From sequence record OR352946.1: a stretch of DNA of 64,000 bases; one strand, given 5' to 3'. How positions within the stretch are numbered: the stretch's first letter is position 1; each line of letters opens with the position of its first letter. The DNA is from Escherichia phage AV116. The translations under genes were made by a program, and so were the position numbers. Of this stretch, positions 8,753 to 12,692 are shown piece after piece. The notes beneath the pieces were generated by a model that was not told where the DNA came from, made no database searches, and saw only the letters and a program-made list of their open reading frames with translations.

Positions 8753-10321
8753 ATGACTACTATCAAAACTAAAGCTCAGCTCGTAGACAAATGGAAAGAA
8801 CTGCTGGAAGGTGAAGGCCTGCCGGAAATCGCTAATAGCAAGCAGGCTATTATCGCTAAAATCTTCGAAAACCAGGAAAAAGATTTCGAAGTATCCCCTG
8901 AATATAAAGACGAGAAAATCGCTCAGGCATTTGGTTCTTTCTTGACCGAAGCTGAAATTGGTGGTGACCACGGTTATAATGCTCAGAACATCGCAGCGGG
9001 TCAAACCTCTGGTGCAGTAACCCAAATTGGGCCGGCAGTTATGGGTATGGTTCGTCGTGCTATTCCTAATCTGATCGCTTTTGATATTTGTGGTGTTCAG
9101 CCTATGAACAGCCCGACCGGTCAGGTATTTGCTCTCCGTGCAGTATATGGTAAAGACCCTATCGCTGCTGGCGCTAAAGAAGCTTTCCATCCGATGTATG
9201 CCCCAGACGCGATGTTCTCTGGTCAGGGTGCTGCTAAGAAATTCCCAGCTCTGGCTGCTGACACTACTACTGTTGTAGGTGATATCTATACTCACTTCTT
9301 CCAAGAAACTGGTACTGTATATCTGCAAGCTTCTGCTGTCGTAACACTTGATTCTGGTGCAACTGATGCAGCTAAATTAGATGCAGAAGTTAAGAAACAA
9401 ATGGAAGCTGGTGCACTGGTAGAAATCGCTGAAGGTATGGCTACTTCTATCGCTGAACTCCAGGAAGGTTTCAACGGTTCTACCGATAACCCATGGAATG
9501 AAATGGGCTTCCGTATCGATAAACAAGTTATCGAAGCTAAATCTCGCCAGCTGAAAGCTGCTTACTCTATCGAATTAGCACAAGACCTCCGTGCAGTACA
9601 CGGTATGGATGCTGATGCTGAACTGAGCGGTATTCTTGCTACTGAAATTATGCTAGAAATCAACCGTGAAGTTGTTGATTGGATTAACTACTCGGCACAG
9701 GTTGGTAAATCTGGTATGACCCTGACTCCGGGTTCTAAAGCTGGCGTATTTGACTTCCAGGACCCGATTGATATCCGTGGTGCTCGTTGGGCCGGTGAAA
9801 GCTTTAAATCTCTGTTGTTCCAGATTGATAAAGAAGCAGTTGAAATTGCTCGTCAAACCGGCCGTGGTGAAGGTAACTTCATTATCGCTTCCCGTAACGT
9901 AGTTAACGTACTGGCTTCAGTTGATACTGGTATTTCTTACGCTGCCCAGGGTCTGGCTTCTGGTTTTAATACCGACACTACTAAGTCTGTATTTGCCGGT
10001 GTACTTGGTGGTAAATACCGCGTATACATCGACCAGTATGCTAAACAGGATTACTTCACCGTTGGTTACAAAGGCGCTAACGAAATGGATGCAGGTATTT
10101 ACTATGCTCCTTACGTTGCACTTACCCCGCTGCGTGGTTCCGATCCTAAGAACTTCCAGCCGGTAATGGGCTTTAAAACTCGTTACGGTATCGGTGTTAA
10201 CCCGTTTGCTGAAAGTTCCCTGCAGGCTCCAGGTGCTCGCATCCAGTCCGGTATGCCGTCTATCCTGAACAGCCTTGGTAAGAACGCTTACTTTAGACGC
10301 GTCTACGTTAAAGGAATTTAA
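8753..10321 (+). CDS. 23: major capsid protein gp23
   Basis: 522 aa, T4 gp23-like sequence and codon usage of a highly expressed gene. Confidence 0.95.
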   Translation: MTTIKTKAQLVDKWKELLEGEGLPEIANSKQAIIAKIFENQEKDFEVSPEYKDEKIAQAFGSFLTEAEIGGDHGYNAQNIAAGQTSGAVTQIGPAVMGMVRRAIPNLIAFDICGVQPMNSPTGQVFALRAVYGKDPIAAGAKEAFHPMYAPDAMFSGQGAAKKFPALAADTTTVVGDIYTHFFQETGTVYLQASAVVTLDSGATDAAKLDAEVKKQMEAGALVEIAEGMATSIAELQEGFNGSTDNPWNEMGFRIDKQVIEAKSRQLKAAYSIELAQDLRAVHGMDADAELSGILATEIMLEINREVVDWINYSAQVGKSGMTLTPGSKAGVFDFQDPIDIRGARWAGESFKSLLFQIDKEAVEIARQTGRGEGNFIIASRNVVNVLASVDTGISYAAQGLASGFNTDTTKSVFAGVLGGKYRVYIDQYAKQDYFTVGYKGANEMDAGIYYAPYVALTPLRGSDPKNFQPVMGFKTRYGIGVNPFAESSLQAPGARIQSGMPSILNSLGKNAYFRRVYVKGI

Positions 10322-10350
10322 TGCTTTAACGTTAAAATACATAACCTTAT

Positions 10351-10380
10351 GGGAGACTCCGGTCTCCCATTCTTGTTTCT
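10351..10380 (+). terminator. intrinsic terminator after gene 23
   Basis: hairpin GGGAGAC-TCCG-GTCTCCC (10351-10368) followed by T-rich ATTCTTGTTTCT. Confidence 0.7.
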
Positions 10381-11038
10381 ATAGCTTAAAACAATCATCG
10401 CGTTCATTAATCCAATTTCTTATAGTTTTTGCGGATACGTTAAAGAATTCGGCAGCGTAATCGTAGTGGTTAAATTCATGGCCTTTAATAGAAATATCCA
10501 CAAATACAAATTTCTTACCTTTATTAGAATTCTTTCTAATTTTTGCTTTATGCTCTTCTGATAGTTTTCTACCTTTAAGATGAGAATCTCTATTTTTATA
10601 AAACTTTTTATTTGCTATAGATTTGTTTTCTCGATGTTCTTTAGATTCTTTAGAACCTAATTTCTTTTTAGATATTTTGGCCCGAACTTCTTCAGTCATA
10701 CCAGCTTTTGTCTTTTCGGATAACATCTCACGATACCCAGGTTCCTGTAAAGCTACTATAACAGGATTACCCTTGCCGCCTAAGGCTGCATTATAAGTAT
10801 CTGTTCTCATGACAAAAGCCTCGTCAACTAGTTCGGCTTCCTTAGCATACATCTCTTCAGATGTTTCGAAATTGAAAAGGATTTCCTTTTTAAAATTCTC
10901 TAAGCCGTATTTCTTTATGGATTTTACTATGTTAACCCCGGAACCCATATAAGAATCGTTAACATCTGTGGTGGCATGGGCTCCAACATAAATCTTGTTA
11001 TTAATGAGATTGGTTATTTTGTAAATTAAATAATTCAT
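10379..11038 (-). CDS. segD: GIY-YIG homing endonuclease (Seg-like, segD position)
   Basis: 219 aa; N-terminal YKITN..KIYVGAH GIY-YIG-type motif and basic K/S-rich C-terminal DNA-binding region; lies between genes 23 and 24 as T4 segD does; symbol by position only. Confidence 0.75.
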   Translation of the reverse strand: MNYLIYKITNLINNKIYVGAHATTDVNDSYMGSGVNIVKSIKKYGLENFKKEILFNFETSEEMYAKEAELVDEAFVMRTDTYNAALGGKGNPVIVALQEPGYREMLSEKTKAGMTEEVRAKISKKKLGSKESKEHRENKSIANKKFYKNRDSHLKGRKLSEEHKAKIRKNSNKGKKFVFVDISIKGHEFNHYDYAAEFFNVSAKTIRNWINERDDCFKL

Positions 11039-11041
11039 ATT

Positions 11042-11308
11042 TTATGCTGCTTTGACACGTCGGTTGATGATATCACGGAAGTCAATACGATTTTCTTGGA
11101 TTTTCAGCCAGTTACCAGATTTGTCTTTGGTATGGGTAGAATATTCACCGTTCCACCAGAAGTCAGTTTCATAAGCCAGGGCTTCGTATTTCTTAACCAA
11201 TGCATTAACTGCATTACCGTTAGGATTGGTACCAAATTTTTCTACCAGAGCTTTGATGTCTTTGTCAAGGTTAGAAAGTGTGGTACGGATAAAGTTTAAT
11301 TTGTTCAT
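11042..11308 (-). CDS. hypothetical protein (88 aa) upstream of segD-like gene
   Basis: ATG at 11308 preceded by AGGAG with 7-nt spacer; the track start at 11323 places that SD inside the ORF; no recognisable domain. Confidence 0.5.
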   Translation of the reverse strand: MNKLNFIRTTLSNLDKDIKALVEKFGTNPNGNAVNALVKKYEALAYETDFWWNGEYSTHTKDKSGNWLKIQENRIDFRDIINRRVKAA

Positions 11309-11337
11309 TTTTAATCTCCTCATGTTTTGATAGGTCT

Positions 11338-11367
11338 ATAGTAACACGACGCTTTTTGTGTGTAAAC
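11338..11367 (-). promoter_or_regulatory. early sigma70-type promoter (GTTTAC-N18-TACTAT)
   Basis: minus-strand -35 GTTTAC and -10 TACTAT upstream of the 88-aa ORF/segD-like pair. Confidence 0.55.
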
Positions 11368-11373
11368 CACTTT

Positions 11374-11381
11374 TATAAATA
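11374..11381 (+). promoter_or_regulatory. late promoter TATAAATA for gene 24
   Basis: TATAAATA 30 nt upstream of the gene 24 ATG. Confidence 0.65.
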
Positions 11382-11411
11382 AAATTATATTCTCAATAAG
11401 GAAAAAATGCA

Positions 11412-12692
11412 ATGAGTAAAATCCAAAAATTATTGCGTGAATCTACAACGTCTACTAGCAACTCAATTGGTCGCCCAAATCTCGTTGCTTTGACTCGCGC
11501 TACGACTAAATTAATATATTCTGACATTGTAGCAACACAAAGAACTAATCAACCTGTTGCTGCTTTTTATGGTATCAAATATCTTAACCCAGATAACGAA
11601 TTCACATTTAAAACCGGTGCTACTTATGCGGGTGAAGTTGGATATGTAGACCGAGAAAAAATTACTGAACTCACAGAAGAATCAAAAGTCACACTAAATA
11701 AAGGTGATTTTTTCAAATATAATAATATCGTCTATAAAGTGTTAGAAGATACACCATTTGCAGATATTCAAGAAAGTGATCTAGAATTAGCTCTTCAGAT
11801 TGCAGTCGTTCATTTAAAGGTACGGTTATTTTCAGATGCAGCGGTAACAAGCAAATTTGAAAGCTCTGATAGCGAAATTTCTGATGCAAGATTCCAGATT
11901 AATAAATGGCAAACTTCAGTCAAATCTCGTAAACTTAAAACCGGCCTCACGGTTGAATTAGCGCAAGATTTGGAAGCGAATGGATTTGACGCCCCTAACT
12001 TCTTAGAAGATTTGCTTGCTACTGAAATGGCAGATGAAATTAATAAAGATATTCTTCAGTCTTTAATTACTGTATCGAAACGTTATAAAGTTACTGGAAT
12101 TACTGACACCGGATTTATTGACTTGAGCTATGCATCCGCTCCAGAAGCAGGTCGTTCATTATATCGAATGGTGTGTGAAATGGTATCACACATTCAAAAA
12201 GAGTCAACTTATACTGCAACGTTTTGTGTAGCCTCAGCTCGTGCAGCTGCTATTCTTGCTGCTTCTGGTTGGTTAAAACATAAGCCGGAAGATGATAAGT
12301 ATCTTTCACAAAATGCTTATGGATTCTTGGCAAATGGATTACCTCTTTACTGCGATACCAACAGTCCGTTAGATTATGTTATTGTGGGTGTTGTAGAAAA
12401 TATCGGCGAAAAAGAAATTGTAGGGTCCATCTTTTATGCTCCATACACTGAAGGAGTAGATTTAGATGACCCGGAACATGTCGGTGCATTTAAAGTTGTA
12501 GTTGATCCAGAAAGCTTGCAACCGTCTATCGGATTATTGGTTAGATATGCTTTATCAGCAAATCCTTACACAGTAGCAAAAGACGAAAAAGAAGCGAGAA
12601 TAATTGATGGCGGGGACATGGATAAAATGGCAGGACGTTCAGACTTGTCTGTTTTACTCGGTGTTAAATTGCCTAAAATTATTATAGACTAA
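11412..12692 (+). CDS. 24: capsid vertex protein gp24
   Basis: 426 aa, gp23 paralogue-like, T4 gene 24 position. Confidence 0.9.
   Translation: MSKIQKLLRESTTSTSNSIGRPNLVALTRATTKLIYSDIVATQRTNQPVAAFYGIKYLNPDNEFTFKTGATYAGEVGYVDREKITELTEESKVTLNKGDFFKYNNIVYKVLEDTPFADIQESDLELALQIAVVHLKVRLFSDAAVTSKFESSDSEISDARFQINKWQTSVKSRKLKTGLTVELAQDLEANGFDAPNFLEDLLATEMADEINKDILQSLITVSKRYKVTGITDTGFIDLSYASAPEAGRSLYRMVCEMVSHIQKESTYTATFCVASARAAAILAASGWLKHKPEDDKYLSQNAYGFLANGLPLYCDTNSPLDYVIVGVVENIGEKEIVGSIFYAPYTEGVDLDDPEHVGAFKVVVDPESLQPSIGLLVRYALSANPYTVAKDEKEARIIDGGDMDKMAGRSDLSVLLGVKLPKIIID

Follow-up and report, generated by a model that had tools for sequence, protein, structure and literature searches.

A probable SegD-type insertion behind a resident small gene between head genes 23 and 24 of Escherichia phage AV116

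Introduction

In Escherichia phage AV116, the interval between the head genes 23 and 24 carries two genes on the opposite strand, a small gene encoding a protein of 88 aa and, downstream of it, a gene for a SegD-like endonuclease (hereafter seg). The sequence-only reading of this locus treated the two genes as an early module, in which the small protein could be a partner or regulator of the endonuclease or, alternatively, the product of an unrelated hitchhiking gene. The question is whether the two genes belong together by function or are neighbors of separate origin. The interval was analyzed within the window, the 64,000-nucleotide stretch of record OR352946.1, and compared with its counterparts in other phages. 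With a probability of roughly 0.8, its minus strand is composed of two independent elements in series, a resident small gene and a later SegD-type insertion.

Organization of the gp23–gp24 interval

Both opposite-strand genes were found where the sequence-only reading had placed them, between gp23 and gp24 (Table 1). According to the terminator scan, the hairpin next to the seg stop codon has a 9-bp stem followed by a T-run on the plus strand. Read from the minus strand it also forms, with a folding energy of −17 kcal/mol (z = −3.2), but lacks a tight U-run there. It is found in seg-positive and seg-negative genomes alike. The GC content is 32.9% in seg, 38.6% in the small ORF, and 46% in gp23, with 38% for the window.

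Table 1. Features of the gp23–gp24 interval of AV116, in window positions.
Feature	Position	Strand	Basis
Gene 23, major capsid protein, left neighbor	8753–10321	+	ORF list; annotation of AV109 (100%-identical record)
Hairpin terminator shared by gene 23, reading in from the left, and by the seg/small-ORF unit, reading in from the right; left edge of the putative insertion	10349–10380	.	Terminator scan
SegD-family free-standing GIY-YIG homing endonuclease gene (seg), 219 aa, probable secondary insertion	10379–11038	-	Homology, presence/absence
Putative right insertion junction: 3-nt gap from small-ORF TAA to seg ATG, with the final six small-ORF codons	11039–11062	-	Alignments
88-aa small ORF, RB69ORF188c / JS98 orf173 / VR7ORF190c family, PHROG 6003	11042–11308	-	Profile match, dN/dS
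Shine-Dalgarno sequence GAGGAG, 7 nt 5′ of the ATG at 11308	11316–11321	-	Read directly; kept in the Mosigvirus and Dhakavirus alignment
Putative sigma-70 / T4-early-type promoter GTTTACA-17-TGtTACTAT serving the small ORF and presumably also seg	11338–11367	-	Promoter scan
Gene 24 late promoter of the T4 type (TATAAATA), back-to-back to the putative early promoter	11374–11381	+	Pattern search; kept in 12/12 aligned genomes
Gene 24, capsid vertex protein, right neighbor	11412–12692	+	ORF list; AV109 annotation

The open frame of the small ORF extends over 11042–11323 on the minus strand, and the start codon at 11308, which is served by the strong Shine-Dalgarno (SD) sequence described in the sequence-only reading, gives a protein of 88 aa. 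An alternative in-frame ATG at 11323 overlaps the SD sequence and is missing from phage LF82-1, so the 88-aa protein is regarded as the real product. The early-type promoter proposed upstream of the small ORF was likewise recovered. The TTTACA-17-TACTAT site with a TG extension (11366 to 11338, minus strand) is the sole sigma-70-like site within 10250–11500. Because such a lone match is not above chance in shuffled sequences (1 found vs. 4.4 expected), its assignment as a promoter rests on conservation across genomes: of 12 aligned genomes, 11–12 retain both hexamers and the length of the spacer, whereas the spacer sequence itself takes three unrelated versions. The same promoter architecture is present upstream of segD in T4 and in the Gelderlandvirus CGG4-1.

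No promoter specific to seg was detected, as the minus strand of the interval contains neither a TATAAATA element nor a MotA box. The seg ATG starts 3 nt past the TAA of the small ORF and is not preceded by an SD sequence, no terminator is located between the two genes, and a search for RNA structure sequestering the seg start revealed no departure from shuffled sequences (z = 0.14). Since the minus strand has no late or MotA-type promoter, no terminator intervenes, and the gap is only 3 nt, co-transcription of the small ORF and seg is likely. Lacking a promoter and an SD sequence of its own and starting so close behind a stop codon, seg would be transcribed by read-through from the early promoter of the small gene and translated at a low level by termination-reinitiation after the small ORF, and the unit as a whole would be expressed early. 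Free-standing endonuclease genes of T4 often have no translation initiation regions of their own and overlap upstream ORFs (PMC2988022). The apparent borrowing of a promoter by seg is ordinary behavior for homing endonuclease genes. The literature search found no T4 transcriptome paper mentioning segD.

The endonuclease is a SegD-family protein

The 219-aa endonuclease shares an amino acid identity of 58–59% with T4 SegD over 100% of its length. It passes the cut-off of NCBIfam TIGR01453 (I-TevI-like group I intron endonucleases) with 57.4 bits against 56.05, its residues 5–214 aligning to profile positions 4–205 of 215, and is assigned to PHROG 314 (5e-54) and to the PADLOC HEase family (1.6e-22). 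The Pfam matches were all below threshold, including PF01541 (16.2 bits, cut-off 22.6), PF19835 (20 bits, cut-off 25), and the NUMOD3 and HTH families. T4 SegD aligns with the protein at the GIY (LIY) and YxG (YVG) blocks, at the conserved Glu residues, and at the YN motif; no counterpart of the canonical catalytic Arg of I-TevI was identified in the protein, and there was no sequence-level match to the solved I-TevI chains. The segD-like GIY-YIG identity given by the sequence-only reading is upheld by these comparisons, and judging from its sequence the protein is a SegD-family free-standing GIY-YIG homing endonuclease. It presumably has nuclease activity, as this activity is named for the T4 enzyme in the title of the paper on T4 SegD.

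In T4, segD is also antisense to genes 23 and 24 (PMC2988022). The AV116 and T4 genes have in common the locus, the antisense orientation, a stop codon a few nucleotides from the gp23 terminator hairpin, and a sporadic distribution within the genus, and their products share the N-terminal GIY/YxG block and the C-terminal ...TIRNWI... helix-turn-helix region. However, T4 segD lies directly behind a TTTACA-17-TATTAT site and has its own SD sequence with no intervening ORF, whereas the AV116 gene follows the 88-aa gene and lacks an SD sequence. The Mosigvirus and Dhakavirus seg alleles further differ from T4 SegD in that their C-terminal (DNA-binding) half is mosaic. The enzyme shares with I-TevI-like endonucleases the modular arrangement of a catalytic domain, a linker, and a DNA-binding domain, but it is free-standing and not intron-encoded.

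Distribution and probable insertion of the endonuclease gene

The small ORF was detected in 132 phage records and the endonuclease (at least 80% identity) in only 37, with about 95 of the 132 records carrying the small ORF without the endonuclease. In 48 records the junction belongs to the same allele class and is an uninterrupted, empty site. In T4 and CGG4-1, segD stands alone in the 23–24 interval without the small ORF, and most Tequatroviruses have neither gene, the segD cassette being covered in 53 of 888 matching records; the interval of RB10 is 83 nt. At an otherwise collinear site, seg is absent from SQ17, JS98, WG01, VR5, VR7, and JS09. This seg-less arrangement spans deeply diverged small-ORF alleles (31% amino acid identity in JS09, 65% in VR7), and the seg-positive arrangement is confined to alleles of the 90%-or-higher class. 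The obligate co-occurrence that would characterize a nuclease-partner pair was not observed, as each gene is found without the other. The endonuclease gene has the distribution of a free-standing, sporadic gene with a precise empty site (37 seg-positive vs. 48 empty records).

Collinear alignment revealed a clean insert of ~660 bp between the hairpin and the stop codon of the small ORF. Its right junction is common to all 37 seg-positive records, each of which covers at least 80% of an 81-nt junction query. All eight differences between the window and the seg-negative phage SQ17 within the small ORF fall in its final ~20 nt, leaving the remaining ~246 nt unchanged, and its final six codons contain a cluster of mostly silent changes specific to seg-positive genomes. 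All six aligned seg-positive genomes differ at the junction from the seg-negative form, GCAATCTTAAC; four of them have GCTGCTTTGAC, while 04086 has CTCCGCTTTAAC and UP19 has CTCTACTTTGAC with one extra codon.

The identity to the window changes abruptly around the interval in several genomes. JS09 is 97–100% identical in gp23 and gp24 and only 40–63% in the interval itself. UP19 is 100% identical from seg through the gp23 3′UTR and then 63% inside gp23, and 04086 is 98–100% identical from the 5′ half of seg through the promoter and then 57% in gp24; the recombination tracts of these two phages have their ends at the stop of gp23 and the start of gp24. SQ17, which has no seg, is nearly identical to the window in both its small-ORF allele and its gp23 3′UTR. 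We propose that a SegD-family gene was probably inserted once, between the stop codon of the small gene and the terminator hairpin, after which recombination would have carried it between genomes of Mosigvirus and Dhakavirus. Because SQ17 shares the small-ORF allele and the gp23 3′UTR of the window, seg may also have been lost precisely in some lineages.

The small ORF might also have been the target of the enzyme, an explanation that we regard as possible but doubtful. The recognition or cleavage site would then span the 3′ end of the small ORF and the terminator in seg-negative genomes, the silent changes would be a scar of immunity or co-conversion, and seg would have spread by homing. The restriction of the eight substitutions to the last ~20 nt of the small ORF is consistent with such a site, as are the one junction common to all seg-positive records, the separation at this junction of the six aligned seg-positive genomes from four Dhaka-type seg-negative genomes (SQ17, JS98, WG01, and VR5), and the recombination tracts that flank seg; for the Seg and Mob enzymes known from T4, the cut sites are within neighboring genes or close to them (PMC2988022, table). 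However, the substitution cluster could be the mere edge of the inserted cassette. In T4 and CGG4-1, segD has an identical placement with respect to the gp23 hairpin although no small ORF is there, so the small ORF is not required as a target. According to the title of Sokolov et al. (2018), T4 SegD does not home, and spread by classical homing is for this reason not assured.

It is improbable that the pair is the original state and that the seg-negative genomes arose by deletion. The near identity between SQ17 and the window to either side of the insert and the occurrence of segD-type genes in the 23–24 interval of at least four genera would fit an ancestral seg. These observations are outweighed by the base-precise empty site common to deeply diverged small-ORF alleles in three genera, the limitation of seg to one allele class and a single junction, its GC content lower than that of its surroundings, and the absence of segD from most Tequatroviruses as well.

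Slightly less probable still is the functional module suggested by the sequence-only reading. Taken broadly, such a module would be inherited as one unit, with the 88-aa protein serving the endonuclease as partner, specificity factor, inhibitor, or immunity protein. The shared strand, the 3-nt gap, and the single upstream promoter are in its favor, and 04086 exchanged the 5′ half of seg, the small ORF, and the promoter together as one tract, although such a joint transfer is also a prediction of flanking-marker co-conversion. The distribution contradicts a partnership: the small ORF is without seg in most of its genomes, the SegD of T4 and CGG4-1 is without the small ORF, and family members in unrelated phages have no adjoining endonuclease gene. 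In addition, the small ORF is equally constrained in seg-negative genomes. The alternative of an unrelated hitchhiking gene was correct as to the lack of relation, but its polarity is reversed, with the small ORF as the resident and the endonuclease as the hitchhiker. For two independent elements in series, neither the small protein nor the nuclease would need the other.

The small gene as a probable mobile accessory gene

By its sequence, the small ORF is a member of the RB69ORF188c / JS98 orf173 / VR7ORF190c family, which is already catalogued as hypothetical. Its product matches PHROG 6003, a family of unknown function, at 1.2e-48, with residues 1–88 on profile positions 1–88 of 90. The window ORF has the length of the named members and lies, as they do, at the same place and on the same strand of the 23–24 interval, and the identity of its protein is 90–99% to Dhaka-type alleles, 65% to VR7, and 31% to the JS09/RB69 type. 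The window lineage differs from the RB69ORF188c family in having a seg gene downstream and one C-terminal residue change (I87A). The sequence-only reading had counted correspondence to a known T4 ORF against its proposal; the small ORF has no T4 counterpart, yet it does correspond to catalogued hypothetical ORFs in RB69, JS98, and VR7.

That the 88-aa ORF is not a gene, but a chance frame or the leader of the endonuclease transcript, could be supposed from the lack of a Pfam family or known motif and is nearly inconceivable, because its dN/dS is 0.06–0.12 at dS up to 0.5, its SD sequence is strong and conserved, its AF2 model is confident (pLDDT 93, pTM 0.78, with a helix-helix-beta hairpin-helix topology), and ~27 homologous clusters of the same length exist in diverse phages. 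Family members are stand-alone phage proteins of ~83–104 aa, and an alignment of 16 diverse members has K3, F6, N30-G31-N32, and Q71 as invariant residues. Two large proteins with multi-stretch phmmer matches, P0009 (1633 aa) and P0012 (1498 aa), were rejected as repeat or composition artifacts of Ig-like and YadA-like repeat proteins, and P0010 was rejected as a chimeric metagenome gene call.

In agreement with the sequence-only reading, which had seen no recognizable motif, the small protein matched no Pfam family, no known motif, and no defense-related PADLOC family. The only NCBIfam line scored 12.8 bits against a cut-off of 600, and a sequence profile search of the PDB gave nothing below E = 0.3. 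With the predicted model, Foldseek returned no PDB match at E 0.001 or better, and a search of BFVD returned only the family itself. In the literature, no functional mention of RB69ORF188c was found.

In Mosigvirus, Dhakavirus, and Gaprivervirus, members of the small-ORF family are located antisense in the 23–24 interval. Homologs also occur in small-gene arrays of Acinetobacter phages, beside a primase-helicase gene in a lambdoid-like contig, and antisense between portal and Mu-F head genes, where the homolog is equipped with a TTGACG-17-TATAGT site of its own and shares a hairpin. None of the homologs in unrelated phages adjoins an endonuclease gene, and a similar self-contained layout, resembling that of a "moron", was found twice among them.

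Morons are independent promoter-gene-terminator units located between genes of late operons, a concept that originates from lambdoid/HK97 phages; the classical examples come from temperate phages, where the prophage expresses them. Like them, the small ORF has a predicted sigma-70-type promoter of its own, is flanked by two late head genes on the opposite strand, and has a hairpin at its end, and its family occurs at different sites in unrelated phages. In contrast, AV116 is a virulent T-even-type phage, and the timing of expression is inferred. The small ORF may thus be considered a moron-type early accessory gene with a predicted promoter and terminator, and the resident unit would comprise an early-type promoter, a strong SD sequence, the 88-aa product, and an end at the gene 23 terminator hairpin. 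A structural or assembly role, as suggested by the neighboring capsid genes, was rejected because the ORF is antisense, has an early-type promoter, and has homologs in the early or replication regions of other phages. The small protein could be a stoichiometric binder of a host macromolecule, serving host take-over or counter-defense, for which we see odds slightly short of even.

Implications

The arrangement is ordinary and largely already annotated. For annotation, the 88-aa ORF should not be labeled a Seg accessory factor, and the endonuclease gene is better described as a probable recent mobile insertion that appears to exploit a resident promoter. The small-ORF family, which is well-folded by prediction, strongly constrained, and horizontally mobile, is a reasonable candidate for host-interaction screens. 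Two bolder readings, which we hold to be unlikely, can be put forward: that the 88-aa NGN...Q protein, with its confident predicted fold without a solved relative and its movement between unrelated phages as a self-contained unit, is a new host-directed inhibitor involved in counter-defense or take-over, or that the AV109/SQ17 allele pair defines a SegD-type target at which homing might be real where T4 SegD reportedly failed. Near-isogenic seg-positive and seg-negative phages constitute a clean natural system for tests of SegD-type homing and of the cut site. The alleles of AV109 (seg-positive) and SQ17 (seg-negative) differ only by the insert and the mostly silent changes at the 3′ end of the small ORF.

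Organization of the interval between genes 23 and 24

The window comes from the left end of a T-even genome of Mosigvirus type, and positions 10300–11420 are 100% identical, at the same coordinates, in Escherichia phages AV109, AV114, and AV115. The two ORFs, the Shine-Dalgarno (SD) sequence, and the early-type promoter site described in the sequence-only reading were all found where it had placed them. The small ORF has a GAGGAG SD 7 nt 5' of the ATG at 11308; as the alternative ATG at 11323 overlaps this SD and phage LF82-1 does not have it, the product is 88 aa. GenBank already carries annotations for both genes between 23 and 24, one as a homing endonuclease (SegD in some records) and the other as a hypothetical protein, and the case adds one more example of kinds already known.

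Features of the gene 23–24 interval in the window
Feature	Position	Strand	Basis or remark
Gene 23	8753–10321	+	ORF list
Gene 23 hairpin, 9-bp stem and T-run	10349–10380	folds on − strand also	ends gene 23
219-aa ORF (endonuclease, seg)	10379–11038	−	ORF list
Small ORF	11042–11323; SD-served start 11308, giving 88 aa	−	ORF list
Sigma-70-like site TTTACA-17-TACTAT, TG-extended	11366 to 11338	−	promoter scan and 12-genome alignment
Late promoter of gene 24, TATAAATA	11374–11381	+	conserved
Gene 24	11412–12692	+	ORF list

Gene 24 is single-copy in the window and tandemly duplicated (24a/24b) in Dhakavirus, Gaprivervirus, and Gelderlandvirus genomes (loci L006, L009, L013–L016, and L003). In JS09, rnlB (L005 586–1585) is annotated as two CDS pieces of 720 and 150 nt with ~130 nt between them, and is possibly frameshifted or interrupted.

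Probable insertion of a SegD-like endonuclease beside a resident gene

The 219-aa protein shares 58–59% identity over its whole length with T4 SegD and 62–63% with SegD of Gelderlandvirus CGG4-1, passes the NCBIfam model TIGR01453 "group I intron endonuclease" (57.4 bits; cut-off, 56.05), and matches PHROG 314 (5e-54) and the PADLOC homing-endonuclease models (1.6e-22), which bears out its initial description as segD-like. Every match to Pfam GIY-YIG, NUMOD3, and HTH was under the cut-off. The segD genes of T4 and CGG4-1 share the interval and antisense orientation of seg, with a few nucleotides between their stop codons and the gene 23 hairpin, but their intervals, unlike that of the window, lack the small ORF.

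The small ORF is best seen as resident in the interval and not as a partner of the nuclease. The sequence-only reading had grouped the two genes as a module with a possible partner role, which is not supported, given this absence beside segD and the distribution of the two genes: the small ORF occurs in 132 phage records (tblastn), whereas the endonuclease at ≥80% identity occurs in only 37. An 81-nt probe for the uninterrupted site, counted at ≥80% coverage and ≥90% identity, found 48 records, and a probe for the seg junction matched exactly the 37 seg-bearing records. Relative to the seg-less phage SQ17, the window carries a clean insertion of ~660 bp between the hairpin (directly after …TTCTATA) and the small-ORF stop codon, and the two 88-aa proteins differ at one residue. 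The seg-less state includes deeply diverged small-ORF alleles (VR7, 65% aa; JS09/RB69-type, 31% aa), whereas seg-bearing genomes always have a small ORF of the ≥90% allele class, so that the insertion is regarded as the derived state. Such natural pairs with and without seg provide a chance for homing tests; judging by the title of the work of Sokolov et al., T4 SegD reportedly does not home.

Promoters and expression

The putative small-ORF promoter is the only sigma-70-like site in 10250–11500 and lies back-to-back with the late promoter of gene 24. The single match is not above shuffle expectation. Across the 12 aligned genomes, conservation extends to both hexamers (plus-strand TGTAAAC and CTATAGTA) and to the length of the spacer but not to its sequence, which comes in three unrelated versions; this looks like the pattern of a functional promoter. 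The Mosigviruses mobillu and LF82-1 (L007, L011) have the JS09/RB69-type promoter spacer and gp24 5'UTR yet a Dhaka-type small ORF, with 60% identity to the window in the bin 11342–11401; therefore, another recombination joint is placed within the 100-nt divergent-promoter region.

The seg ATG lies 3 nt past the small-ORF TAA (…GCAGCATAAAATATG…). Upstream of it there is no SD, minus-strand late promoter, or MotA box, and no significant RNA structure was detected around the start (z = 0.14). Transcription of seg would proceed by read-through from the small-gene promoter, making co-transcription plausible, and its translation would be weak and coupled. This fits the general picture of the T4 free-standing endonuclease genes, many of which have no translation initiation region of their own and overlap the ORF upstream (PMC2988022). 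No segD-specific promoter was found in T4 according to the same 2010 review (PMC2988022). We found a TG-extended TTTACA-17-TATTAT (10/12 matches) 21 nt upstream of T4 segD (L002 2443–2471) and a TG-extended TTTACA-17-TAAAAT upstream of CGG4-1 segD (L003 2447–2475). Both sites, ~20–25 nt 5' of the ATG, are comparable to window 11338–11367 and likewise back-to-back with the gene 24 late promoter, and the 83-nt interval of the seg-less Tequatrovirus RB10 (L024) has no such site.

Mosaicism of the locus

Several features suggest mobility. The GC content is 32.9% in seg, 38.6% in the small ORF, and 46% in gp23. When the window is compared with SQ17, eight differences fall within the last ~20 nt of the small ORF, and its other ~246 nt are identical; under uniform change, the chance of all eight falling there is about (21/267)^8, or ~1e-9. 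This 3' stretch differs from the seg-less form GCAATCTTAAC in all six aligned seg-bearing genomes, reading GCTGCTTTGAC in four, with 04086 and UP19 each having its own variant.

Identity to the window, binned along the locus, reveals a mosaic. JS09 is 97–100% identical in gp23 and gp24 and only 40–63% in the interval, and Dhakaviruses are 40–80% identical in gp24 and 83–98% in the small ORF. In the Dhakavirus UP19, identity is 100% over the seg 3' half and on across the gp23 3'UTR and then 63% inside gp23; 04086 matches the window at 98–100% over the stretch that runs from the seg 5' half up to and including the promoter and then at 57% in gp24, and its seg 3' half, presumably the DNA-binding part, is a different allele (65–75%). 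The tracts of UP19 and 04086 have their limits at the stop of gp23 and the start of gp24, matching the idea that nuclease genes mark genetic-exchange boundaries (PMC10448857).

The 04086 SegD-like ORF is intact (223 aa; L010 1530–2201) and unannotated in GenBank, where the gp23 annotation is also cut at its 5' end. The endonuclease itself is domain-mosaic (window 10379–10700 against L009 and L010): the N-terminal ~117 aa are near-identical in the window, IME08, and 04086, and the C-terminal linker and DNA-binding half shows 65–75% nt identity in 04086 and partial divergence in IME08. Alleles may have been shuffled, or target specificity may have shifted.

The small-ORF family

The small ORF is a genuine gene that matches no Pfam family and belongs to PHROG 6003 (1.2e-48), corresponding to the catalogued hypothetical ORFs RB69ORF188c, JS98 orf173, and VR7ORF190c at the same place and strand. 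It is under strong purifying selection (dN/dS 0.06–0.12 at dS 0.24–0.51), and its AlphaFold model, which is confident (pLDDT 93, pTM 0.78), is helix-helix-beta hairpin-helix. A profile search gave ~27 clusters, all of 51–160 aa (most 83–104 aa) and none with Pfam domains. Other T4-like contigs also have a member antisense between gp23 and gp24. In Acinetobacter phages, members lie within arrays of small genes that carry no annotation, and in a lambdoid-like early region (L020) the member P0024 directly follows a primase-helicase. The distant member P0026 (83 aa) reproduces the T4-like layout in an unrelated small phage, being antisense between the Phage_portal_3 and Phage_Mu_F head genes (L026 3689–4031), with its own TTGACG-17-TATAGT site and a hairpin common to the convergent gene. 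In the Acinetobacter, lambdoid-like, and portal/Mu-F contexts examined, no endonuclease gene lies directly beside the small ORF, and the behaviour of the family is that of a moron-type accessory unit, mobile and self-contained. The protein encoded two genes upstream of P0024 (L020 776–4252) matches T5orf172/MUG113 (GIY-YIG clan) and DUF723, which may be a coincidence.

Searches by sequence, fold, and a defence library found no relatives of the 88-aa protein outside its own family. Its early-type promoter and moron-like mobility lead us to a tentative guess, at or slightly below even odds, that it binds a host macromolecule stoichiometrically, acting in host take-over or counter-defence. For follow-up, it offers an uncharacterised, well-folded, mobile, and presumably early protein that is basic (pI 9.5) and soluble (GRAVY −0.74), with an invariant N30-G31-N32 loop and Q71.
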